A stretch of DNA of 64,000 nt from Candidatus Woesearchaeota archaeon (GCA_018302125.1 JAGWAC010000001.1:33684-97683), one strand, 5' to 3'. Numbered from the stretch's first letter, positions 5,794-46,197 are shown. A program made the numbers and translations. Notes: generated from the sequence alone by a model not told the origin.

Positions 5794-7185
5794 ATGGTTT
5801 TGCAAATTTATAATACTTTAACAAGAAAAAAAGAAATTTTTACACCTTTAAAAAATAATCTTGTTGGATTATATACTTGTGGACCGACTGTATATCATTA
5901 CGCCCACATAGGAAACTTAAGGACGTATATATTCGAAGATATCCTGAAAAGAGTTCTTTTGTATAATAAATTCAAAGTAAAGCACGTAATGAATATTACT
6001 AATGTTGGTCATTTAACTTCTGATTCAGATACAGGTGAAGATAAAATGGAAAAAGGGGCAAAAAGAGAAGGTAAGTCAGTTTGGCAAATTGCAGATTTTT
6101 ACACAAAAGCATTTATGGAAGATATAAAAAAATTAAATATAATTAAAGCAAATATATTTTGCAAAGCAACTGATTATATAAAAGAACAAATAGAATTAAT
6201 AACAAAATTAGAGAAAAAAGGTTTTACTTATATAATTGAAGATGGAGTTTATTTTGATACTTCTAAATTAAAAGATTATGGGAAATTAGCCAAATTAGAT
6301 ATTGAAGGGTTAAAGGCTGGAACAAGAGTAGAATTTGTTAAAGGTAAGAAAAATATAACTGATTTTGCTTTATGGAAATTTTCTCCAAAAGATAAAAAAA
6401 GACAGATGGAATGGGATTCTCCTTGCGGAAAGGGTTTTCCAGGTTGGCATATTGAATGTTCTGCAATGTCAATGAAATTTTTAGGAGAAACATTTGACAT
6501 TCATTGCGGGGGTATTGACCATATACCTGTGCACCATACAAATGAAATTGCCCAGAGTGAAACAGCAACAGGTAAAAAATTTGTAAATTATTGGATGCAT
6601 GGGGAATTTTTGAATCTTGAAAAAGAAAAAATGGCTAAATCAGGTGAAAATTTTATTACTTTATCAACTCTCGAAAAGAGAGATTTTGATCCTTTAGCAT
6701 ATAGGTTTTTTTGCTTGTCAGCCCATTATAGATCTTCATTAAACTTTAGTTTTGAGGCTTTAGAATCAGCCAAAAATGGATTTGAAAAATTAAAAAATAA
6801 AATCTGGGAAATAAAAAAAGAAAAAGATAAAGTTAAAAAAGAAATAAAAGAAAAATATCGGGAGGAATTTTTAAAATTAATAAATAATAATTTAGATATG
6901 CCTGGGGCTCTTGCTTTATTATGGGACTTGATAAAAGAAAAAGAAATTTCAGGAAAATCAAAATTAGATTTAATTTTAGATTTTGATAAAATTTTTGGAT
7001 TAAATTTAAAAGATATTAAAGAAGAAAAAATACCAAAAGAAATTTTAAATCTAGTTAAACAAAGGGAAAAAGCAAGGCAAGAAAGGAATTTTGCAGAATC
7101 AGATAAATTAAGAAAATTAATCCAAGAAAAAGGATATACAATAGAGGATACAAAAGGCAAGCCTATTGTAAAAAAAGGGGTTTAA
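5794..7185 (+). CDS. cysS: cysteinyl-tRNA synthetase
   Basis: HIGN motif ([12 protein letters not shown]), zinc-binding Cys residues and KMSKS-like KMAKSGENF. Length 463 aa. Confidence 0.95.
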
Positions 7186-7945: not shown

Positions 7946-10900
7946 TTGGTGAATGATGTTGTTGAACAAGTAGAGAAATTTCGTGATTTTCTAGAGCAAA
8001 ATTATCAAAATCAATTAAATGAAATTACATTAAAAGGAAGAAATTTTTTATTGATAGATTTCTCCAACTTATTAAAATATGATCATGAATTAGCAGATCA
8101 ATTATTAGATGAACCAGAAGAAACAATAAAAGCATTTGAATTAACATTAGATAATTTTGAAATTTCTCATTTCGTAAGAATTAGATTTCATAATCTACCA
8201 TTAAATCAAAAAGTAAAAATAAAAGATATAAGGTCTCAAGACCTTGGAAAATTTTTATTGACAGAAGGAATAGTAAGACAATCTTCTGATGTACGTCCTC
8301 AAGTTGTTTCTGCAAAATTTGAATGTCCTTCATGTGGTAATTCAATTTCAATTCTGCAAGTCGATGTAAAATTCAAAGAACCATATAGGTGTACATGTGG
8401 AAAAAAAGGAAGATTTAGATTATTGTCAAAAGAATTAGTAGATGCACAAAGAATTGTAATTGAAGAAAGTCCTGATTCTTTAGAGGGTGGAGAACAGCCA
8501 AAGAGATTAAATGTTTTCTTGAAAGAAGACTTAGTTGAACCAATTATGGAAAAGAAAACAACTCCTGGTTCAAAAGTAAGAGTAAATGGAATTATAAAAG
8601 AAATTCCTGTTCTATTGAAATCAGGATCTCCAAGTACAAAATATGATATTATGATGGAAGCTAATTTTATTGAGCCTTTAGAAGAAACTTTTGAAGAACT
8701 TGATGTTAACAAAGAAGATGAAGAAAAAATCATAGAATTAGCTAAAAATCCAAAAATATATGAAAAATTTGTAAATAGTATTGCCCCCTCAATTTATGGA
8801 CATTCTGATATAAAAGAAGCTCTTGCTCTTCAATTATTTGGTGGAGTAAGAAAAGAAAGAAAAGATGGAACATGGAACAGAGGAGATATACATATCTTAT
8901 TAGTTGGGGATCCTGGATCATCCAAATCGTCGTTACTTTTTTTTATGTCCAAAGTAGCTCCAAAAGCAAGGTATGTTTCTGGTAAATCAAGTTCAGCAGC
9001 AGGATTATGTGTAGCTCCAGATTCTTTAGTATTAAAAAATCCTGGATCTTTAATTAAAATAAAAGATGAAGTTGAAGAAAGACTAAAATTAGATTCTTCA
9101 AAATATTCAGATGGTATTTGGAAAACAAAAGATGGTTTTAATCAAAAAGTTTATACTTTAGACAATAATTTTAAAGTTAAAAGCGGGCAAGTTGAAAGTT
9201 TTTGGAAAATAAAAGCCCCGGAAGAAATGGTTTCTTTAAAATTACAAAGTGGGAAAGAAATTACACTTACAAAAAACACAAAACTACTAACAATAAATAA
9301 TGGAAAAATAGATTGGCTAGAATCAAATAAATTTATAAAAAATAATTATATAGCCACTGTAAATAATTTAAATGTTAAATCAGATTTATCAATTCCTACT
9401 TTATCATTAGTAACAAGAAATCCGGTAATTTACGGTGTAAAACCTTTCTTAAAAGAAATTTTGAGTAAAGTTAACAAGAGAGAATTAGCTAAAGAATTAA
9501 AAATTAATGAAAATAATTTATATCACAATTGGATAAAAGAAGGTGCAAGAGGAAATATAACTCTTAAGGATTTAAGAAAACTTTTAAACAAATTTAATTT
9601 AAAAGAGGATAAGATTATTGATTATATAACAAACTTATCTCTTTACAGAGCTTATAAATTTAAAATTCCAAAATATTTAAATGAAGATTTTTTGTATTTA
9701 ACAGGCTTAATTGCCGGAGATGGAGATCTATCTGAAAATAAAAGAAAAGATTCTGTTAAAATAAGACTTTCTAATAGTAATAAGGTTATTAGGGATAATT
9801 TTAAGAAAATAGTTAAAAACTTGTTTAATGTTAAAGCTGGACGATCAAGTAAAAAATCTGCCCAAAGATCAGAATCAATAGGGTTTAGTAATATAATTAT
9901 ATCAGAAATAATAAATAAATTATGTATACCAAAATCACATAAAATAGATATGGGTAGTCTTTTGCTAAATCTACCAAATAATTTAGTTGCTAATTTTGTT
10001 GCTGGATATTTTGATTGTGAGGGTAGCCCCGTGTATAGGGACAAAAAAGAAGGAAGCTCAATTTTAGAGATATCTTCTACAAGTAAAACTATTTTAAAAA
10101 AATTACAAATTGTTCTACTTAGGTGGGGAATACTTAGCACTTTAAGGGGGAAAAGAGCAAAGGGAAAAATAAGTAAGCGCACTAACTCAAAAATAATAGT
10201 TTCTAAACACGATAAAGATATTTTAACTATTTATGGAAAAGATAATTTTATCAAATTTAGGGATAATATTCCAATCAGACAACCCGATAAAAAGAAAGAA
10301 CTTGATTTTATTATCAGGAAAATAAATAAATATGATACAAATACAGATATTGTACCAAATATAAGTTCTTTGATAAAAACAATTAGGAAAAAACTAAAAT
10401 TAAATCTAAAATCGCTAAAGATTCGTAGAAATAATTATAGTAAAAATTATTTAAAAAAAATAGTTAATGAAATTGAAAGCATAACTTCAGAAACTTGTAA
10501 TGAGTTTTCATATTTAAAAACTCTTTCTGAAGCAAATATATTCTGGGATAAAATAAGAGAGATTAAAGTAATAAAACCAGATTATGAATATGTTTATGAT
10601 TTAACAGTTAAAGAATCACATAATTTTTTAGTTAATGGTGTAGTTGTTCATAATACTGCTAGTGTAGTAAAAGATGAATTTCTTAAAGGTTGGGCGTTGG
10701 AAGCTGGTGCTTTAGCATTAGCTAATAATGGATCAATCTACATTGATGAATTGGACAAAATGGATGAAGAAGATACTTCTGCTTTGCATGAAGGGCTTGA
10801 ACAGCAGCAAATAAGTTTTAGTAAAGCAAATATTCAGGCAACATTATTGACAAGAACATCAGCTTTAGCAGCAGCTAATCCAAAATTAGGGAGATTTGAT

Positions 10901-11614
10901 CCTTACCAACCAATAGCAGCACAAATTAACTTGCCTCCAGCATTAATTAACAGATTTGATTTAATTTTTCCAATGAGAGATATTCCAGATGAACAAATTG
11001 ATACCAAAATAGCAACTCATATTCTTGAGGTTCATGAAAATAAAGATGGTGGATTTATACCAGATATAGATTCAAAATTAATAAAAAAATATGTTTCTTA
11101 TGCAAAAAAAAGAGTGTTCCCAAAATTAACAGAAGGTGCAAAAGATGAAATTAGAAATTTTTATGTAAGTTTAAGAAACTCAGGTAGTGGAGATAAAAAT
11201 GAAGTTAAACCAATTCCAATTTCTGCAAGACAATTAGAAGCCCTAATAAGATTAAGTGAAGCATCTGCAAGAGTTCGCCTTAGCAATAAAATAACAAAAG
11301 ATGATTCAAGAAGAGCTATTAGAATTTTAAAAAAATGTTTGGAAAAAGTTGGTATTGATCCAGAAACAGGAAAAATAGATATTGATAGAATTACTACAGG
11401 AATTACAACATCTCAAAGAGGGAAAATAATTATAGTTCGTGAAGTTATAAATGAGTTTAACAGGAATGGAATTAAAACTATTCCAGTAGAAGATATAATT
11501 AATGCATGTAAAGATAAGGGCTTGGAAGAAAGCAGAATAGAAAATATAATAGATCAGATGAAAAAAGAAGGTGAAATATTCCAGCCTAAAGTTGGTTTCA
11601 TTAGCAAGATTTAA
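7946..11614 (+). CDS. mcm: MCM replicative helicase interrupted by an intein
   Basis: N-terminal zinc finger (CPSCGN...CTCGKKG), Walker A GDPGSSKS, and Walker B with arginine finger after the intein (IYIDELDKM, SALHEGLEQQQIS). The extein is 673 aa. Confidence 0.95.
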   Translation: MVNDVVEQVEKFRDFLEQNYQNQLNEITLKGRNFLLIDFSNLLKYDHELADQLLDEPEETIKAFELTLDNFEISHFVRIRFHNLPLNQKVKIKDIRSQDLGKFLLTEGIVRQSSDVRPQVVSAKFECPSCGNSISILQVDVKFKEPYRCTCGKKGRFRLLSKELVDAQRIVIEESPDSLEGGEQPKRLNVFLKEDLVEPIMEKKTTPGSKVRVNGIIKEIPVLLKSGSPSTKYDIMMEANFIEPLEETFEELDVNKEDEEKIIELAKNPKIYEKFVNSIAPSIYGHSDIKEALALQLFGGVRKERKDGTWNRGDIHILLVGDPGSSKSSLLFFMSKVAPKARYVSGKSSSAAGLCVAPDSLVLKNPGSLIKIKDEVEERLKLDSSKYSDGIWKTKDGFNQKVYTLDNNFKVKSGQVESFWKIKAPEEMVSLKLQSGKEITLTKNTKLLTINNGKIDWLESNKFIKNNYIATVNNLNVKSDLSIPTLSLVTRNPVIYGVKPFLKEILSKVNKRELAKELKINENNLYHNWIKEGARGNITLKDLRKLLNKFNLKEDKIIDYITNLSLYRAYKFKIPKYLNEDFLYLTGLIAGDGDLSENKRKDSVKIRLSNSNKVIRDNFKKIVKNLFNVKAGRSSKKSAQRSESIGFSNIIISEIINKLCIPKSHKIDMGSLLLNLPNNLVANFVAGYFDCEGSPVYRDKKEGSSILEISSTSKTILKKLQIVLLRWGILSTLRGKRAKGKISKRTNSKIIVSKHDKDILTIYGKDNFIKFRDNIPIRQPDKKKELDFIIRKINKYDTNTDIVPNISSLIKTIRKKLKLNLKSLKIRRNNYSKNYLKKIVNEIESITSETCNEFSYLKTLSEANIFWDKIREIKVIKPDYEYVYDLTVKESHNFLVNGVVVHNTASVVKDEFLKGWALEAGALALANNGSIYIDELDKMDEEDTSALHEGLEQQQISFSKANIQATLLTRTSALAAANPKLGRFDPYQPIAAQINLPPALINRFDLIFPMRDIPDEQIDTKIATHILEVHENKDGGFIPDIDSKLIKKYVSYAKKRVFPKLTEGAKDEIRNFYVSLRNSGSGDKNEVKPIPISARQLEALIRLSEASARVRLSNKITKDDSRRAIRILKKCLEKVGIDPETGKIDIDRITTGITTSQRGKIIIVREVINEFNRNGIKTIPVEDIINACKDKGLEESRIENIIDQMKKEGEIFQPKVGFISKI
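9008..10654 (+). mobile_element. MCM intein (549 aa) with LAGLIDADG homing endonuclease
   Basis: Begins CVAPDSL directly after ...SSAAGL. Two LAGLIDADG motifs (LTGLIAGDGDL, VAGYFDCEGS). Ends YVYDLTVKESHNFLVNGVVVHN, followed by Thr (+1). Confidence 0.85.
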
Positions 11615-27185: not shown

Positions 27186-30100
27186 TTAATTAAACCACCC
27201 AATCAAAGCTTTCTGCTTGTCTTTCTCTTTTCCAAATAAAGATTCAATTCTTTTTTTTGTAATCTTTAAATTTTGCTTTAAATAAACAGGAAGATCATAC
27301 TTCTCAGCAATATCTAAAGCCATATTCAAATATTTTATGACAAATCCTTCAGAAACAGTGAGTAATAATTTACCCCCGCATTCAAGGCAAATTCCAGATA
27401 AAGGCGGCCTTCTGAATTTTGCATTGCATTCAACGCATCTGAATTGTTGCGTTGAAAATTTTCTTAAGTTTCCTTTTATATCTCTGATAAAATGTTTCTC
27501 AATAACTAATCTGGCAACATCTTGCTCATTAACAGCTCTTATTTTTTTAGCTAAATCTAATTGTCCCTTTACTTTTTCACCCATAGAAGGAATAAATTTA
27601 TATGCGCTACAAACGACCCCACGATTAATATCGCTAGTATCATGGGTAAACCCAAATCCCCCATATTGCTTTTCAGTATCTAAAAAATCTTTTACTTTAG
27701 AAATCTTAATTTCCCAAGGATTTTTGTATTGCATGGCAGCTTCATAAAATTCCAAAGGATAATTAAAAGCAACATCCATGTCAAATACCATGTCATCCAC
27801 TTCTGTAGGCAATAATTTAGAGCTTAATAATAAAGGTTCATCTTGTGTTGCCCCTTTAGTTTTCGGCAAATATTTTTTTGAAAAATTAAGCAAAACATCC
27901 ATTAATAACATAATGCAAGCTTCATCACCGTCACACCTAGTATTTATAATTTGATTACCCCAAATAATATTTCGTTCCTCTTTTTCTTTCCAGTCAACTT
28001 CCAAACAATAAGAATTTGCTTTTTCATTAATTATTTCAATAGACTTTACATAATCTATGAAAGCATCACCAAAAGAAATTAAAGGAATTTGCTTATGATT
28101 ATAAGATAATTTTCTTCCTTTAGTTTTTAAATTCAGCATATATTTTAATTTTTCAGCTTTCTTAGGATGATTTAAATTTAAAAAACAAGACAAAGTTCTA
28201 CAATCTATTCCACTATAAATTAAATGATGATTAACTGAATATTTTGGTTTTTTTCCGAGTCTTTTATAGATTTCTAAAACCGTTCTTCCAGGCAATCTTA
28301 GTTTACTTGAACAAAATCTCCCTATTAAATTAAATCTTGTCAATAAAAAAGATATATCATCTAAAAGAGATTTATTAACAGATGAAATATCAATAACATC
28401 TCGCTGAGTTACTATACTACCATCGCCATCAATATAAGCAGAAATATAAGCACTAACTATTTCATCAAGAGAATTATATAAAAATCTTGGAACCCTTTTT
28501 GTATGAGCATTTGATCCAGTTTTAAAGCAATATTTAAGTAAATAATAAATAATATCATAACAAATTGTAATCTTAGTATTATTTTCTTCTAAAATTGGTT
28601 TAACCCCAAAACATTTTCGCGTAGAATTAAAAATTGCTTCCTGAATTGACTTAGTACTATTTCTAAAACTAACTCGTTTTGTTGTTGCATTTGTATGTAA
28701 ATGTCCTTCGGCAGTATAATAACCAAGTAAATTAGCTAAATTTTCATCAATTTTAATTTTATTATTGAATTTAAATTTTCCAAAAAAACATCTAATCAAA
28801 GCTTTATCAGGAATATCTTCAATAGAAACCAAATTTAATTCTAACAGCTTTTTAAAATTATTCAATGGGACGCTTTGATACCATCTGCTTAGATTCTTTT
28901 TATATTCACCTTTAAAATTTAATTTCTCGCAAATAAATTTCCTCCCCAATCTATTCACTAAATTTTTAAAGAAATCAGAACAATTATCAATTTTTACTTT
29001 TGAAAGTATTTTTTCCGGTAAATTTTCAATAAATTCTTTAATTAAATTTAATTCTGTACTAAAATTTATTTCTGGTTTAAAATAATCTAAAACAAGTAAC
29101 TTATCATCTATTTTAATTTCATTTGCTTTTTTAAATTTAAAATTATTGCTTTCATCTAAAAACATAAAATCATGATTCTGAGTCATTGTATAATTTCTAT
29201 TTGTTGCAGTAGTAATTTTTATCCATTCTTCTGTTAATGGACCCTTAATAAAGTGTTTAATCTTTTTTTCTTTTATTTCTTTAGTAACAGGATCAGAACC
29301 ATATGCAACCAATTCTTGGTTGCATTCTACTTTTAAAGTTCCAACAGTATCGACTACTTTTGTTTTAGCCCCTCTTTTTATTAAATCTTCAACAAAGGGC
29401 CCAATTTCATCATAGTAGATTTTTTTGTTTTTATCAGAATAAACAAATTTAGTGGTTGGAAAAACACAGTCTCTTCTCATAAGTGAGTGCAAATAAGGAT
29501 GTGCTAAAAATCCTTGTGTTTTTGAAAATCCAATTATCCTTGACACTATGCCAGAAGATGTATGCGGGCTCAGACTGATAACTAATTGCCCTATCAAGTC
29601 TTCTTTTGTTTTGAGATTATAATATTTTTCAGTTTTGTATAATTTCTCAAGTAACTCGTCAATAAATCTAGAAATTTTAAGCATAACATCATCACACTTT
29701 TCATCTAAAGTATCTGGAGAACAAGGAATTACAATATCTTGTGATTTTAATTCAATAATTTGCTCATCATTAATAATCTCATTTCCATAAACATCTTTTT
29801 TATAGCTTAATTTTTTTAATCTTTCTAAATTTAAACCAATTTCTTTTGGTTTAAAATGAGTCAATGGCATCTCAATCATATCATATCTAATTGTACCGTC
29901 TTTATTTACATATAAACCATATTTAGCTCTCAAAATTCCCTTAGATAAATGTTCAACAATATGGTCTTTGCTACTTGTTCCCCTAACACCTTTAATCAAT
30001 TCTGGATAAGAATTTGTATCTAATATTTTCAAGGCATTTTTTAAATAATAATTAATGTCAATTTCTCTTTTTCTGGATTTTAATGTTTTTCTTCCGCAGC

Positions 30101-32144
30101 ACTCTTCATTATCATTTATTTTTTTACAAGTAGTACAAAAGAATTTTTGTATGCATTTGTTTCCACAGACCTCACAAAGAGAATAAACAGTCTCCTTATT
30201 GCACTTTTCACATAAAAAATTTGGAAAATCAGCATTAATTTTTCCTTTAGCTAAAGCATTGTTAAAACTTCTTGTTTTTCCCCCTTCGTTTCCAACAGCA
30301 AACAAAATTTGTGGACTCCCTGTTAATTTTCTCATTTTAGCTTTCTCAGGTCTGCCCATTCTTGCCCCAATTGAAGTTCCTGACTTATCCCTAATTTTAT
30401 ATTTACATTTTTCGTTCAAAATATCTAAAACATTTTCCTTATCAGAAATAAAATTAAAATCACCACCCAAATTTAACATCAAAGCTTCTTTCCATTCTCC
30501 TTCAATCACAACATATTCATTCAAAACATACTTGTGAAGCACCCCAATTAATTCTAAAATTCTTTTTGGTAGATTTTCATCTTTTAATTCTGGTTTTTGG
30601 TGATAAGGAATTACTAATTTATCATCTTTAAAAGCTCCTTTCCGAAGCCATTCAAGTAAAAGATTAAATTGCTCTTTATTTATTTCTGACCACCTAAATA
30701 AATATCTGGGATGTAAAGGTAAGTTCTTTTCAAGAGATAATTTTTTAGCCTCTTCAATAGAAATTTTTTTTTCTTTAATTCCAGTTTCTAAGCACCACCA
30801 TTCATCACAGTATCCAGGTGGAACTAATTTATGAGCTCTATTTAAAAAATCACCATAATTAATTAAAATATCACCCAAATGTAAAATTTCTTCAATATCT
30901 TTGGCAACTTTTCGAGCCTGTTCTGGATCTTCTAAAAATAAAACATCACCATTTTTTAATTTTACAATCGGCCCATCAATACTGTCACAAGACCCAACAA
31001 CACAGGCTTTTCCAGGCCTCTCAACTTTAAGTTGTGTACCAATAGCAATAAAATTATTTAAGACATACATGGTTGATGGGTGTATTGCTTGAGCGCTTAA
31101 ACCAGTATTTCTTCCTCTTCCGTATCGTAATCTAAAGCCGCCTTTTGCTAATGGGTGAGTAAAAACAGGTCTACCAGCTACTAAATCTTTAATATATGTG
31201 TAGTCTGGTTTTATCAAAACATTAGAATTTTCAGATTTTTCCTGTGCTTTGCTTTTCTGTTGTATTTTCAAAAATTCATCTAAGAAATTCCATTCGTCAC
31301 TAAAAAAATCTTTTCCCCATTTCTGTAATTGTGCAAAAACTTTCTTTGCTTTCTGCGCAAAACATTCTGCAAAAACCAAGCAAAAACCATTCCTTATTAA
31401 ATTAGTCCCAATTCTGTCTAAATCTTTATAATTGCTTACTTCAAATTTCTCAGAAGGATCTCCTGTAATTTGGACAGGTATTTTTGAGGCTAAAAAAACT
31501 ATTTCTTCATCACTGGGTAAATATTGTAAATTTGTAATTCTTTCATGATAATCTTTTACTTCTGTAACACTTCTCTTAATCTCTTCTTTTGTTGCATCAT
31601 AAACATCATATCCCATTTTTAATCTTATATAATCAGCAACAACAACAGATACAGAAGCACCTGTGCCGCCCGCGCTCCTGATTGGGCCAGAATAATATAA
31701 AGCAAAGTATTCCTTTCCGTCTCTTCTTTTTTTTAATTCCAACCTTACAAATCCCTCTAATGGTGAAACAACTACACCAAGAGTAATATACGCAAGTCCA
31801 AATCTAATTCCTACCTCCATAGCTTCTCTTTTGTCTTTAAATTTGCAAAACTTCTCCTGCGCAATTTCTAAAGAAATAGTCAAAGCAACCCGCCAATCTA
31901 TTCTCCCGAATTGTTTCTCAAGATCTTCAATTCTTTTCTCAATTCCTTGGTTTTTTACTTGTGGAGCAACTATAGAAATTAAGCCAACAGCCCTATCAAC
32001 CATATTTTGTGCCAAAGGAATGTCAACAAAAAGTTCAGGATCAATGCCTTTGCTTCTCGCCTTATTTGCAGATTCATAAGCCTTCTTGATTTCATTATCA
32101 AAATCTTCAAAATATTTCTTAATATCTTCACTGGCAACTATCAT
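27186..32144 (-). CDS. DNA polymerase II (PolD) large subunit DP2, interrupted by an intein
   Basis: Conserved DP2 N-terminus. Catalytic region has ...HPYLHSLMRRD [intein] (TR)CDGDEACIMLLMDVLLNFSKKYLP, the PolD signature. C-terminal zinc fingers. 1652 aa including the intein. Confidence 0.95.
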   Translation of the reverse strand: MIVASEDIKKYFEDFDNEIKKAYESANKARSKGIDPELFVDIPLAQNMVDRAVGLISIVAPQVKNQGIEKRIEDLEKQFGRIDWRVALTISLEIAQEKFCKFKDKREAMEVGIRFGLAYITLGVVVSPLEGFVRLELKKRRDGKEYFALYYSGPIRSAGGTGASVSVVVADYIRLKMGYDVYDATKEEIKRSVTEVKDYHERITNLQYLPSDEEIVFLASKIPVQITGDPSEKFEVSNYKDLDRIGTNLIRNGFCLVFAECFAQKAKKVFAQLQKWGKDFFSDEWNFLDEFLKIQQKSKAQEKSENSNVLIKPDYTYIKDLVAGRPVFTHPLAKGGFRLRYGRGRNTGLSAQAIHPSTMYVLNNFIAIGTQLKVERPGKACVVGSCDSIDGPIVKLKNGDVLFLEDPEQARKVAKDIEEILHLGDILINYGDFLNRAHKLVPPGYCDEWWCLETGIKEKKISIEEAKKLSLEKNLPLHPRYLFRWSEINKEQFNLLLEWLRKGAFKDDKLVIPYHQKPELKDENLPKRILELIGVLHKYVLNEYVVIEGEWKEALMLNLGGDFNFISDKENVLDILNEKCKYKIRDKSGTSIGARMGRPEKAKMRKLTGSPQILFAVGNEGGKTRSFNNALAKGKINADFPNFLCEKCNKETVYSLCEVCGNKCIQKFFCTTCKKINDNEECCGRKTLKSRKREIDINYYLKNALKILDTNSYPELIKGVRGTSSKDHIVEHLSKGILRAKYGLYVNKDGTIRYDMIEMPLTHFKPKEIGLNLERLKKLSYKKDVYGNEIINDEQIIELKSQDIVIPCSPDTLDEKCDDVMLKISRFIDELLEKLYKTEKYYNLKTKEDLIGQLVISLSPHTSSGIVSRIIGFSKTQGFLAHPYLHSLMRRDCVFPTTKFVYSDKNKKIYYDEIGPFVEDLIKRGAKTKVVDTVGTLKVECNQELVAYGSDPVTKEIKEKKIKHFIKGPLTEEWIKITTATNRNYTMTQNHDFMFLDESNNFKFKKANEIKIDDKLLVLDYFKPEINFSTELNLIKEFIENLPEKILSKVKIDNCSDFFKNLVNRLGRKFICEKLNFKGEYKKNLSRWYQSVPLNNFKKLLELNLVSIEDIPDKALIRCFFGKFKFNNKIKIDENLANLLGYYTAEGHLHTNATTKRVSFRNSTKSIQEAIFNSTRKCFGVKPILEENNTKITICYDIIYYLLKYCFKTGSNAHTKRVPRFLYNSLDEIVSAYISAYIDGDGSIVTQRDVIDISSVNKSLLDDISFLLTRFNLIGRFCSSKLRLPGRTVLEIYKRLGKKPKYSVNHHLIYSGIDCRTLSCFLNLNHPKKAEKLKYMLNLKTKGRKLSYNHKQIPLISFGDAFIDYVKSIEIINEKANSYCLEVDWKEKEERNIIWGNQIINTRCDGDEACIMLLMDVLLNFSKKYLPKTKGATQDEPLLLSSKLLPTEVDDMVFDMDVAFNYPLEFYEAAMQYKNPWEIKISKVKDFLDTEKQYGGFGFTHDTSDINRGVVCSAYKFIPSMGEKVKGQLDLAKKIRAVNEQDVARLVIEKHFIRDIKGNLRKFSTQQFRCVECNAKFRRPPLSGICLECGGKLLLTVSEGFVIKYLNMALDIAEKYDLPVYLKQNLKITKKRIESLFGKEKDKQKALIGWFN
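27942..29468 (-). mobile_element. PolD DP2 intein (about 509 aa) with LAGLIDADG endonuclease
   Basis: Starts CVFPTTKFV right after MRRD. LAGLIDADG-like motifs LLGYYTAEGHL and ISAYIDGDGSI. The C-terminal junction is ...GNQIIN/TRCDGDE. The exact end (27936 or 27942) is uncertain because there is no His-Asn. Confidence 0.75.
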
Positions 32145-35630: not shown

Positions 35631-36623
35631 ATGAAATCAACTAAAGATATTAAAGTCTCAAGTAAAATATATGAGCAGATCATAGGGCAGAATAAAGCCC
35701 TAGAAATAGTTAAAAAAGCAGCAAAACAAAGAAGGAATTTATTATTAATAGGAGACCCAGGAACAGGAAAATCTCTTTTAGGTCATGCATTAGCAGAATT
35801 ACTGCCAACAGAAAAACTTGTTGATGTTCTTTCTTATGATAACCCAATAGATGAAAATACACCAATAATAAAAACAGTTCCTCGGGGAGAAGGTAAAGAA
35901 ATAGTCTCAAAAGCAAGACTTCAAGCAATAACATCTTTTAAGAAACAAAGTACTTTTATATTTATTTTAGTAATTTTATCAATGATCACACCATGGTTAA
36001 TTAGAAAACAATATGGTGACATAATGGCAGCAGCTTCTTTAATAGGTTCAATGATTTTTTTAGGTGCATTTATTTTATTCTTAAATATTAATAGAAGAGT
36101 TAAAACCACATCAAGAGTTCCCAAATTATTAATTGATAATTCAAATACAAAAAAAGTTCCTTTTTTAGACGCTTCAGGAGCACATGCTGGAGCACTACTT
36201 GGTGACTGTTTACACGATCCATTACAATGCCTAAATAGTAGTAACAATATTTTTATAATTAAAGAAATAGGAAAAGATAAATATATCTTACAAGAAGAAG
36301 ATATTAGTTTAAAAATTAATAATTTATTAGAAAAAAATAAAGACAAAATAATTAAAAGAAAAGATTATTCTGCAGTTCATTTAAAAGAAGGGGAATTAAA
36401 AATTTTAGGAGAAAGAAATAAGAACATTCAAGACGTTACTGTATTATCAGTAAATAAACATAAAAATCACCACAAATATTTAATAAAATTAACAACAGAA
36501 ACTGGAAAAGAATTAATTGTTACGTCAGAACATAAAATAGCAGTTAAAGATTTTTTCAATAAAATAAAATATATTGCTGCAGAAAATTTAAAGCCATGGC
36601 ATAAATTAATCACTCTCGAATAA
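35631..36623 (+). CDS. LonB protease N-terminal fragment (AAA+ N-half with membrane insertion) fused to the intein N-fragment (IntN, 36228-36620)
   Basis: Walker A GDPGTGKS, two TM helices, then ...AHAGALLGDCLHDPLQ matching the LonB sensor region. Next comes CLNSS... (intein block A) and LIVTSEHKIAV (block B), then a stop. IntN is 131 aa. Confidence 0.8.
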   Translation: MKSTKDIKVSSKIYEQIIGQNKALEIVKKAAKQRRNLLLIGDPGTGKSLLGHALAELLPTEKLVDVLSYDNPIDENTPIIKTVPRGEGKEIVSKARLQAITSFKKQSTFIFILVILSMITPWLIRKQYGDIMAAASLIGSMIFLGAFILFLNINRRVKTTSRVPKLLIDNSNTKKVPFLDASGAHAGALLGDCLHDPLQCLNSSNNIFIIKEIGKDKYILQEEDISLKINNLLEKNKDKIIKRKDYSAVHLKEGELKILGERNKNIQDVTVLSVNKHKNHHKYLIKLTTETGKELIVTSEHKIAVKDFFNKIKYIAAENLKPWHKLITLE

Positions 36624-36708
36624 TTATTTAGTTGTCTTCCGAAAACTTTCCGAAATTTATTAATTTTTCCAGAAACTTTACAGTTGATTTATAAATCAAT
36701 CCAGAAAT

Positions 36709-36792
36709 CTTCCGAAAATATAGTACTGGACACCAGACGCCCGCCTAGCGCTTATATACTAAATTAGCTTATATACTAAATTATCTTATATC
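36709..36792 (+). repeat. promoter-like repeat element, copy B (1x iteron; TATA-like box tandemly duplicated)
   Basis: CTTCCGAAAATATAGTACTGGACACCAGACGCCCGCCTAGCGCTTATATACTAAATTAGCTTATATACTAAATT. Upstream there are partial CTTCCGAAAA copies at 36637-36660. Confidence 0.5.
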
Positions 36793-36812
36793 TTTTTATG
36801 ACAGAAAAATAG

Positions 36813-37289
36813 GCTAGCATAATAATTTCAGAACAAAATATAATAAATACTTATAATAAATGGCAACAAGAGCAAAGCAAATTATATTTAGAATATAAAA
36901 AAATAAAACAAGAAAATCCAGAGCTTGGTCATAAAAGAATTGCTACACTTCTAAACCAACCACATCATAAAACAAGATAGTGGCATGAAAAAAATAGAAT
37001 AATTAATTTTTTTGAAGTAGCTGCACTTAAATGCTCTTGTTGTGGAAAACTAGGTCAACATATAGATAAATCAAAAAATATTCAAATTATAAGAAGTCCA
37101 GAATTTTTTAATATTTCATCAATAGAAGAATGGGAAAAGTTTATTGATGAAGAACTTAAATTTTTAATTCAAAACAAAGAAGAAGTACTTCTTATACTTC
37201 CAGAACTTGAAAATAAATGGAAAGAGTCTTGTAAAGCATTAAGAAAGCTAATTAAACAAACAACAAATACTCAACACCAACATTTATAA
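36813..37289 (+). pseudogene. degenerate ORF between the two lon halves, in-frame with the lon N-part, with internal TAG (36978-36980) and no start codon; HTH- and HNH-like hints
   Basis: Frame reads ...WQQEQSKLYLEYKKIKQENPELGHKRIATLLNQPHHKTR*WHEKNRIINFFEVAALKCSCCGKLGQHIDKSKN...KALRKLIKQTTNTQHQHL*. Possibly the remnant of a homing-endonuclease-like gene. Confidence 0.3.
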
Positions 37290-37366
37290 ATTTTCTTTTC
37301 TTTTAATACATTAACCAAGTAACTTATTCCTAAATCAGGAGTTGATAAGAACCTTGGTTCTTATTT

Positions 37367-38731
37367 ATGAATCTAAAAACAGAAAAAATAGAAAAAATAG
37401 AAAAAATCCCATATAATGGATATTTATATAATTTGGCAACTACTACGGGTAATTTATTTGCAAATGGAATTCTAGTTAAAAATTCAGGAGGCCTAGGAAC
37501 TCCTGCATATGAAAGACTAGTTCCTGGAATGATACATAAAGCAAACAAAGGAGTTTTATTCGTTGATGAAATCGCAAATTTAAAGCAAGAGTCTCAACAA
37601 GAATTATTAACAGCAATTCAGGAAAAAAAATATCCTATAACAGGGCAGTCAGAAAGATCTAGTGGAGCAATGGTAAGATCAGACCCTGTTCCAACAGACT
37701 TTACCTTAGTAGCAGCAGGTAATGTAGAAACTATAAAACATATTCATCCAGCATTAAGATCTAGAATACGTGGTTACGGTTATGAAGTTTATATGAATAA
37801 TGAAATGGAAGATACAAGCGAAAATAGGCAGAAAATTATTCAGTTCATCGCACAAGAAGTTAGAAAAGATGGCAAAATTCCACATTTTAGAGAAGATGCA
37901 ATTAATGAGATAATAGAAGAAGCAAGAAAAAGAACAGGCAAGCATGGTCAATTAACATTAAGGCTGCGTGATTTAGGGGGTTTAATCAGAGCAGCAGGAG
38001 ATCTAGCATTAGAAGAAAAAACAGACTTAGTAACTCTAAAACAAGTTATCAAAGCAAAAGAATTAGCAAAAACACTAGAGCACCAACTAGCAGATAAATA
38101 TATAGAAAATAAAAGAAAGTATGAAATTATAATTACAAAAGGTACTCAAATAGGAAGAGTTAATGGTTTAGCAGTAATGGGTTCTGATTCTTCTTATTCA
38201 GGTATTGTTTTACCAATAGAATCAGAAATAACCCCTGGCGGAAAAAAAGCAGAAATTATAGCAACAGGTAAATTAGGAAAAATAGCTAAAGAAGCAGTAA
38301 AAAATGTCTCAGCAATTATTCTAAAATATTTTGGTGAGGATATAAAAGAAAAATATGATATTTTTGTACAATTTATACAAACATACGAAGGCTTAGAAGG
38401 AGATTCAGCATCTATAGCAGTTGCAACTGCAATAATATCCGCATTAAAAAAAGTACCAGTAAGGCAAGACACAGCAATGACAGGCTCATTATCAGTCAGA
38501 GGAGAAGTTCTCGCAGTAGGCGGCGTCTCATCAAAAATAGAAGCAGCAATTAGTGCAGGAATAAAAAGAGTAATTATTCCAAAAACAAATGAAAAAGATG
38601 TGATATTATCAAAAGACAAAATAAACCAAATACAAATAATCCCAGTCTCAAAAATAGAAGAAGTTCTAGAGCAAGCCCTAGACTGGAAAAATAAAGAAGA
38701 AATATTAATGAAAATAAAAAGATTTAAATAA
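37367..38731 (+). CDS. intein C-fragment (IntC, 37367-37483) fused to LonB C-terminal fragment (rest of AAA+ domain plus Lon protease domain)
   Basis: [39 protein letters not shown] (intein blocks F and G) is followed by S and [29 protein letters not shown] (LonB Walker B region). C-terminal protease domain with Ser-Lys dyad context ([24 protein letters not shown]). Confidence 0.8.
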
Positions 38732-46096: not shown

Positions 46097-46197
46097 CGGG
46101 CCCGGAGGGATTTGAACCCTCGGCCCTCTGGTAACTCCAAGAGCTTAAGAGCTTCATCCTTTTGACAGATGCTCTAACCAAGCTGAGCTACGAGCCC
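46097..46197 (-). tRNA. intron-containing tRNA (101 nt), anticodon unresolved; intron apparently non-canonical
   Basis: Clear acceptor (GGGCTCG/CGGGCCC), D-arm (GCTC-AGCTTGGTTA-GAGC) and T-arm (GAGGGTTCAAATCCCTC), with discriminator G. About 28 extra nt sit between positions 31 and 39. No canonical 37/38 intron placement gives a U33 loop. Confidence 0.6.

Follow-up and report, generated by a model that had tools for sequence, protein, structure and literature searches.

Widely used protein-ligation tools are built on natural split inteins, of which there are few. Nearly all the known ones reside, to our knowledge, in enzymes that replicate or repair DNA, and come from cyanobacteria, phage-like marine sequences or one nanoarchaeon. 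Here we describe the lonB locus in a 64,000-nucleotide (nt) stretch of DNA from a Woesearchaeota (DPANN) archaeon (GCA_018302125.1, JAGWAC010000001.1:33684-97683; the whole stretch is called the window below). We read the locus as a naturally split lonB: one membrane LonB protease would be made from two neighbouring genes and be interrupted at a single site by a split mini-intein, a reading to which the sequence leads us to give a probability of roughly 0.8.

The halves of the DNA polymerase PolB of Nanoarchaeum equitans (Neq) reportedly lie far apart in the genome, with intein fragments of ~98 and ~30 amino acids (aa); the N-fragment of the Npu DnaE intein has ~102 aa. The first-pass annotation of our locus, made from the sequence alone, had likened its fragment sizes (131 + 39 aa) to those of these two inteins, a likeness that fails since 131 aa exceeds both N-fragments. 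The Neq PolB intein (NEQ068/NEQ528; 5oxx) is, as in the window, a natural split intein of a DPANN archaeon, and its C-fragment, ILYDLSTESGKFYVNGLVLHN/T (a slash marks the junction between intein and extein), resembles that of the window, where the +1 residue is Ser; both have Gly in place of the block-F His. The window differs from it in its adjacent halves, its longer fragments, a penultimate Lys and an Asn at F:4. As for the cyanobacterial DnaE inteins (Ssp, Npu), the title of a reference in PMC4031507 indicates that Ssp DnaE is also without the penultimate His. They are otherwise unlike the intein of the window: they are bacterial, their genes are dispersed, their fragments are charge-complementary and they have no endonuclease remnant, whereas both fragments of the window are net positive and traces of how the split arose remain in the locus.

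The 'fractured genes' of Dassa et al. 2009 (PMC2677866) are 26 loci from marine shotgun reads, in DNA synthesis and repair enzymes, in which a gene is broken in two at an intein; the endonucleases are GIY-YIG or Vsr-like, and neither LAGLIDADG nor Lon is mentioned. Two relatives of our locus (L001 and L003) and 15 other species show this exact arrangement, the differences being an archaeal cellular host, a membrane protease and an endonuclease of LAGLIDADG fold, of which the window keeps a 67-codon remnant. The window is a decayed derivative of a fractured gene and falls short of full membership because the intact endonuclease gene between the halves is missing (only codons 1-67 are left, two TAG codons interrupt them and the core is deleted). 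In LonB itself, ten contiguous inteins are listed for Euryarchaeota (PMC4760082), and the splicing mechanism of the Pyrococcus abyssi (Pab) Lon intein has been studied, according to a reference in PMC4031507; these share the host protein, but they splice in cis from a single open reading frame (ORF). A search of full-text literature, with subscription journals outside its coverage, turned up no publication that describes a split intein in Lon or LonB, or any intein in Woesearchaeota. Split inteins, fractured genes and contiguous LonB inteins are known kinds, to which a split LonB intein is an addition. The features of the wider family that would count as new are the retention of the endonuclease on the N-fragment, the free-standing LAGLIDADG gene and an associated small ORF. 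We know of no description of a two-gene split intein with the endonuclease on the N-fragment and an ATGA-overlapping gene for the C-fragment.

Two neighbouring genes carry the halves of LonB

The two genes, their parts and the gap between them are as follows.

35631-36623, + strand: ORF-N, 330 aa, TAA stop
35631-36227, + strand: LonB N-extein, 199 codons, with Walker A GDPGTGKS, a two-helix membrane insertion and the C-terminal end ...GDCLHDPLQ
36228-36623, + strand: intein N-fragment, 131 codons, with Cys1 and block B TSEH; TAA stop at 36621-36623
36624-37366: gap between ORF-N and ORF-C, exactly 743 nt
37367-38731, + strand: ORF-C, 454 aa, ATG start
37367-37483, + strand: intein C-fragment, 39 aa (Met + 38 residues), with blocks F and G and the end ...ILVKN
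37484-38731, + strand: LonB C-extein, 415 codons and the stop, from Ser+1, with Walker B VLFVDEI, the LID domain and the S16 protease domain with GDSAS

The halves are thus kept together in a single locus, with order and orientation unchanged, and lie in different frames (746 mod 3 = 2). ORF-N covers positions 5-195 of TIGR00764, the archaeal LonB model, and ORF-C covers positions 195-604 at 639 bits, so that the C-half alone passes the cut-off of 516.6. The C-terminal part of ORF-N matches the intein_Nterm model TIGR01445 at 24.8 bits (cut-off 24.5). In Pfam, Lon_C (7.8e-35) and LonB_AAA-LID match ORF-C, Intein_splicing gives partial matches at both gap-facing ends and PF14890 gives one on the N-fragment. 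The junctions read ...GDCLHDPLQ/CLNSS... on the N side and ...NGILVKN/SGG... on the C side. The two halves together hold what defines a full-length LonB of the archaeal membrane class: Walker A and the membrane insertion come from ORF-N, and Walker B, the LID domain and the S16 Ser-Lys protease (catalytic Ser in GDSAS) from ORF-C. The first-pass annotation had described ORF-N as the N-half of LonB followed by intein blocks A and B and a stop after 131 intein residues, and had placed some 743 nt downstream, in another frame, an ATG-started ORF with 39 intein residues (blocks F and G) running on from Ser+1 into the C-half. Both descriptions hold, coordinates included, and the motif positions confirm its statement that Walker A and Walker B are on separate polypeptides. 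Public annotations name the halves 'ATP-binding protein' and 'ATP-dependent protease LonB'.

Joined in silico, the exteins give a LonB of 199 + 415 = 614 aa, which matches the solved LonB of Thermococcus onnurineus (3K1J) at E=1.5e-221, unbroken through the junction HDPLQ/SGGLGTP. In close relatives without the intein, LonB is a single uninterrupted chain of 614-625 aa with the sequence LHDPLQ/SGGLGTPAY at this place. One of them, P0127, is 89% identical over residues 2-201 to window 35631-36230 and 88% identical over residues 201-615 to window 37484-38728; at the nucleotide level, the insertion site of the intein-free lonB allele lies around CTTCATGATCCATTACAA/TCAGGAGGC. The insertion is exact and in frame: removal of the intein restores the conserved host motif.

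Intein identity and splicing residues

We built a profile from 26 joined N- and C-fragments and searched it against solved structures. The best match was the KlbA mini-intein of Methanocaldococcus jannaschii (Mja; 2jmz, E=1.2e-14), well outside what chance would give and in an alignment that spans the split point, and the profile also matched the CDC21, NrdJ-1, RadA, PolB16 and gp41-1 inteins, the Neq Pol C-fragment and the hedgehog Hint domain (E=1.2e-14 to 1e-7 for the solved inteins and hedgehog Hint). The Hint fold predicted for the fused domain comes from this profile. The C-fragment by itself aligns with the C-fragments of Neq Pol (5oxx_B) and NrdJ-1. At the same site, the related species L073 carries an uninterrupted mini-intein of this family; its 171 aa match the 131 + 39 aa of the window. 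The arrangement is that of a naturally split intein: there are two ORFs, each with an extein and one fragment, and the C-fragment has a start of its own. The break falls between blocks B and F, at the site of endonuclease insertion, and the endonuclease of relatives sits exactly there.

The residues that would carry out splicing are conserved in the family. A search with ORF-N returned 378 homologues, the best 120 of which were used for fragment and residue counts. Intein position 1, the N-terminal nucleophile, is Cys200 in the window (Q/CLNSS) and Ser in 88, Cys in 21, Thr in 10 and Arg in 1 of these 120. Thr is an unusual first nucleophile (found in P0003, P0116, P0118 and others). Block B has the pattern TxxH, as TSEH in the window and TPEHK[VI]A in the family, with the His invariant. 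On the C side, a terminal Asn followed by Ser+1 (N/S) is present in 85 of 85 C-halves, as in ...ILVKN/SGG of the window, and nearly all split homologues have a C-fragment of 39 aa with Met first and [VC]KN last, followed by SGGLGTP.

We computed the ratio of nonsynonymous to synonymous substitution (omega) and the synonymous divergence (dS) for each segment between the window and L001.

N-extein: omega 0.053, dS 1.378
intein N-fragment: omega 0.456, dS 0.884
endonuclease remnant: omega 0.235, dS 0.246
intein C-fragment: omega 0.041, dS 1.648
C-extein: omega 0.043, dS 0.947

Both exteins and the C-fragment are under strong purifying selection. The divergence is a mosaic. The first ~240 nt of the N-fragment (window 36201-36440) are 50-65% identical to L001, the 3' part of the N-fragment is 77-85% identical and the flanks of 36201-36440 are 77-93% identical. 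The dS of 0.25 in the endonuclease remnant, against ~1 in the exteins, suggests a more recent exchange of the remnant segment, and the mosaic pattern is compatible with gene conversion or homing.

The break is shared by related species

Firstly, the 743-nt gap was compared with two independent ENA assemblies, which are 99.75-99.9% identical to the window over 7.6 kilobases (kb), and was found identical at 743/743 and 742/743 positions. Near-identical contigs (ERZ28563641, ERZ4903185) come from aquifer samples. Secondly, nearly all of the best 120 ORF-N homologues stop after an intein N-fragment of 106-136 aa. Of the 109 motif-bearing top matches to ORF-C, 85 are C-halves opening with a fragment of ~39 aa, and the other 24 are full-length proteins without an intein. 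Thirdly, we surveyed the locus in one genome per GTDB species. This returned 76 loci, of which 69 have both halves; 67 of the 69 are split before a Met-initiated 39-aa C-fragment and two are contiguous, which is the outcome of the comparison of split and contiguous lon in related genomes that the first-pass annotation had proposed. The survey loci bear, almost without exception, the names Woesearchaeota, Nanoarchaeota or Nanoarchaeia; about a dozen carry the unverified label 'uncultured Methanosarcinales', and one is from the complete genome of Ca. Heimdallarchaeum endolithica (L059). Synteny is conserved, with the large and small subunits of PolD, Cdc6/Orc1 and a PRC-barrel gene followed by lonB. 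The split is not an assembly artefact, because the gap is identical in independent assemblies and the same break is found in 67 of 69 species loci; the artefact or frameshift that the first-pass annotation had allowed for is thereby set aside. It had also related the split to a gene-splitting habit of nano-sized archaea. The host is indeed a DPANN archaeon. That the split is common in the lineage, and no one-off, had escaped the first-pass annotation.

The window has two further intein-bearing genes, which makes three within 64 kb, and lonB is the only split one. The MCM gene (window 7946-11611, + strand) and the gene of the PolD large subunit, DP2 (window 27189-32144, - strand), each have a contiguous intein with a LAGLIDADG_3 domain, and were counted against an artefact.

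The gap holds the remnant of a homing-endonuclease gene

The first-pass annotation had overlooked the content of the gap. The gap is no empty spacer and holds what is left of a homing-endonuclease gene, with the following features.

36750-36783, + strand: tandem duplication, 2 x 17 nt, GCTTATATACTAAATTA, TATA-like, just upstream of the endonuclease remnant
36798-36998, + strand: LAGLIDADG homing-endonuclease pseudogene remnant, codons 1-67 (N-terminal helical domain), catalytic core deleted
36990-37289, + strand: small ORF, a copy without a start codon, joined in frame to the endonuclease remnant; TAA at 37287-37289
37281-37294, + strand: TATA-like element CATTTATAAATTTT, candidate promoter of ORF-C, ~75-85 nt upstream of its ATG

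In the frame of ORF-N the gap has eight stops, TAG and TAA among them, and from 36798 it reads MTEK-stop-ASIIISEQNIINTYNKWQQEQ...HKRIATLLNQPHHKTR-stop-WHEKNR.... Direct annotation of the gap ORF gave no Pfam or NCBIfam match. The remnant is 85% identical (tblastn) to residues 1-67 of an intact 360-aa ORF that lies between the lonB halves of L001, whose halves are 73% and 92% identical to those of the window; the gene is likewise intact in L003, and in longer homologues the endonuclease sequence stands in frame behind the intein N-fragment. Two in-frame TAG codons interrupt the remnant, at 36810-36812 (codon 5) and at 36978-36980 (codon 61), the latter where the family has a conserved Trp (TGG). 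Deletion of the core left 189 nt in the window in place of 894 nt of L001. The element at 36750-36783 is present as a single copy at the same place in L001, upstream of the intact endonuclease gene, and may have been the archaeal promoter of the former endonuclease gene in the window.

The endonuclease family has ~130 members. The listed names of its free-standing members are all 'hypothetical protein', and these have no Pfam domain of their own; a profile of the intact family found no match in Pfam or among PDB sequences. An AlphaFold 2 (AF2) model built on 63 sequences reached a predicted local distance difference test score (pLDDT) of 94.3, and Foldseek matched it with probability 1.0 to I-DmoI (TM-score 0.6-0.7 on the target), E-DreI, the TliVMA intein endonuclease and PI-SceI. 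The family motifs are LGxxFGDGG and FGGE[IL]G. We classify the intact family, because of the confident model and the Foldseek matches, as a LAGLIDADG homing endonuclease of the monomeric double-motif type, flanked at both ends by predicted extra helical domains. The remnant in the window has none of the LAGLIDADG core (double alpha-beta-beta-alpha-beta-beta-alpha with acidic residues).

The remnant and the small ORF are fused through a 9-nt microhomology, AAAAATAGA (36990-36998). The small ORF is 67% identical in aa to a separate 96-aa gene, L019:6656-6946, downstream of the L019 endonuclease gene; in the window it has no ATG, GTG or TTG start in frame, and it belongs to no Pfam family. In some of the loci, a small ORF of this kind is again present between the endonuclease and the gene of the C-half. 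In L048 (6461-6691) and L058 (6470-6694), an ORF of 74-76 aa overlaps both neighbours by ATGA; it shows a weak C-terminal likeness to the 96-aa ORF of L019, to which it is possibly related. The ORFs of 43 and 100 aa that follow the endonuclease gene and precede the C-half of L001 and L003 show no mutual conservation. Right after the stop of ORF-N, window 36638-36717 has repeated TCCGAAAA and TCCAGAAA motifs, and at the matching place in L014 the reverse-complement motif TTTTCGGAA is repeated.

As for the expression of ORF-C, loci without ATGA coupling have a conserved TATA-like element, CTTTAAAAA or TTTATAAA, ~25-35 nt before the ATG of the C-half, and L019 and L008 have a TTTATAAA(A)TTTC motif ~30 nt upstream of it. 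A distance of 25-35 nt would suit a leaderless transcript in archaea. The element at 37281-37294 of the window would serve as promoter, and ORF-C would be expressed separately. A hairpin in the putative ORF-C leader (37313-37359) is not significant (z = -1.46).

States of the locus and history of the split

The 76 surveyed loci are in the following states.

25 loci: N-half of LonB, N-fragment and endonuclease in one ORF of ~690 aa; the C-half ORF overlaps or abuts it (mostly ATGA; TAATG in the Heimdallarchaeon)
9 loci: the same fused ORF, with a gap of 100-325 nt before the C-half; an ORF of 74-76 aa fills the gap in at least 6
17 loci: three genes, with a free-standing endonuclease
5 loci: two genes and what remains of an endonuclease; the window, counted in addition, makes six
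10 loci: two genes without trace of an endonuclease, with gaps from a short overlap to ~1 kb
1 locus (L039): anomalous, with a stop 25 residues after the HDPLQ junction
2 loci: contiguous intein
7 loci: incomplete, one half missing

All split forms share the break before the 39-aa C-fragment, and a second break, behind the N-fragment, makes the endonuclease domain a separate gene. The direction of evolution that we infer among these states leads from an ancestral bifunctional intein with a LAGLIDADG homing endonuclease, through a stage in which the N-fragment still bears the endonuclease and the gene is broken ahead of the C-fragment, to a stage with the endonuclease free-standing between the halves, as in a fractured gene; the endonuclease would then have decayed or been lost, and the window would stand at the stage of decay. 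We put forward tentatively, and with the odds rather against it, a broader idea: that the family keeps every step of the birth of a split intein in living genomes (contiguous bifunctional intein or mini-intein, fused two-gene, three-gene, decay and loss), and that the split is no accident but is stably maintained by selection in an essential membrane protease, throughout an archaeal order and in at least one Heimdallarchaeon, possibly making Lon assembly conditional.

The endonuclease is still fused behind the N-fragment in 34 species, with junctions near position 6450 of each locus (L035, L046, L053, L054, L056, L057, L059-L061, L064-L071, L074 and L075 are among them). L083 has a contiguous intein of a different allele at the HDPLQ/S site. 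In two close relatives, L008 (565-3414) and L019 (2646-5429), a second, contiguous LAGLIDADG intein lies inside Walker A (GDPGTGK/CVGK...IVHN/SLLGQ), so that each of these LonB proteins has one cis intein and one split intein.

Proposed trans-splicing and alternative readings

We propose that ORF-N yields the membrane-anchored N-part of LonB (Walker A and the transmembrane hairpin) bearing the 131-aa intein N-fragment, and that ORF-C yields the 39-aa C-fragment followed by the soluble part (Walker B, LID domain and Ser-Lys protease). The two fragments would associate into one Hint domain and carry out class-1 protein trans-splicing: an acyl shift at Cys1, transfer of the N-extein to Ser+1, cyclisation of the terminal Asn and formation of the peptide bond. 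The outcome would be a 614-aa LonB of native sequence, with both intein pieces released. We give such association and trans-splicing the probability of roughly 0.8 stated above, and infer it because the catalytic residues are conserved and purifying selection is strong.

Several points weigh against this proposal. The splicing chemistry is deduced from sequence throughout. Three assisting residues are non-canonical and conserved as such in the family (Asn, not Asp, at F:4; Gly, not His, at F:13; Lys, not His, at the penultimate position). The usual F:4 Asp, F:13 His and G:6 His are therefore absent, though none of them is obligatory, and splicing without the penultimate His is documented, as references in PMC4031507 indicate. 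The charge complementarity of DnaE split inteins is not found, both fragments being net positive. Single-sequence AlphaFold did not fold the fused intein domain (pLDDT 35), so that support for its fold comes from the sequence profile. The ATGA coupling of many relatives is lost in the window, where ORF-C relies on a putative promoter ~80 nt upstream. A near-identical assembly (L006) has a 15-nt in-frame deletion at L006:4552 (window 36182-36196), between GGAGCAC direct repeats, that removes HAGAL from the conserved N-extein motif GAHAGALLGD; it may be strain variation or an assembly collapse. Finally, the search with P0127 that returned no further Lon-like sequence covered the 64-kb window only.

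The strongest alternative is that the halves assemble non-covalently into a two-chain LonB, with the intein fragments acting as a dimerisation module and no splicing. The three non-canonical assisting positions speak for it, the conservation of Ser+1 is uninformative because intein-free LonB has the same Ser, and a phage nrdA enzyme is known to be fragmented and assembled without splicing (PMC3045599). Residues that serve the chemistry alone are nevertheless kept over deep divergence (Ser, Cys or Thr at position 1 in 119 of 120, Thr and His of block B, Asn in 85 of 85), and a permanent insert of 170 aa inside the invariant ATPase motif HDPLQ/SGGLGTP would be unlikely to be tolerated, which leaves us regarding non-covalent assembly as unlikely.

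More improbable still is that the intein broke when the endonuclease decayed and that lonB is now a pseudogene in two pieces. The gap does hold a decayed endonuclease gene with stops and a deletion, the strain variant L006 has a deletion in a conserved extein motif, and DPANN genomes are generally reduced. Against this, omega is ~0.04-0.05 on both exteins and the C-fragment with dS saturated, both ORFs are full length with all motifs present, the break and the Met start of the C-fragment are the same in 67 of 69 species loci, and the C-half has either ATGA coupling or a conserved promoter-like element ahead of it.

An artefact of assembly or sequencing, the intein being truly contiguous and in frame, can be given almost no weight: the window is metagenome-type sequence of low guanine-plus-cytosine content (28%), but the gap is identical in the two other assemblies, a contiguous reading would have to pass eight stops and a change of frame, and homologous loci from dozens of projects share the break. 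Recoding, by TAG read-through, frameshifting or translational bypass, that would give a cis precursor from one mRNA has as little chance, for although two of the gap stops are TAG in the ORF-N frame and the ORFs of many relatives overlap by ATGA, TAG is a normal stop that ends 4 of 55 long ORFs of the window, TAA stops also occur in that frame, the second TAG replaces the conserved TGG codon as a mutation would, the catalytic core is deleted and the Met start of the C-fragment is conserved in nearly every species. Recoding of TAG, or its reading as pyrrolysine, within the gap ORF was rejected on the counts of normal TAG termination, the replaced TGG codon and the deleted core.

Significance and a further feature of the window

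With this locus, the list of split inteins extends to a membrane protease of cellular archaea. This split intein is conserved across at least 67 species-level genomes, and the fused, free-standing, decayed and lost states of its endonuclease provide a comparative test of the origin of split inteins and of the fate of their endonucleases. For annotation, unless the two genes are read as one, these DPANN genomes would be credited with a truncated LonB or with none. If trans-splicing holds, the family may supply new cysteine-poor split inteins for protein engineering, because most members have Ser1 and Ser+1.

Elsewhere in the window, at 46097-46197 (- strand), Rfam but not ARAGORN detects a tRNA of 101 nt (51 bits), probably an archaeal tRNA with an intron.

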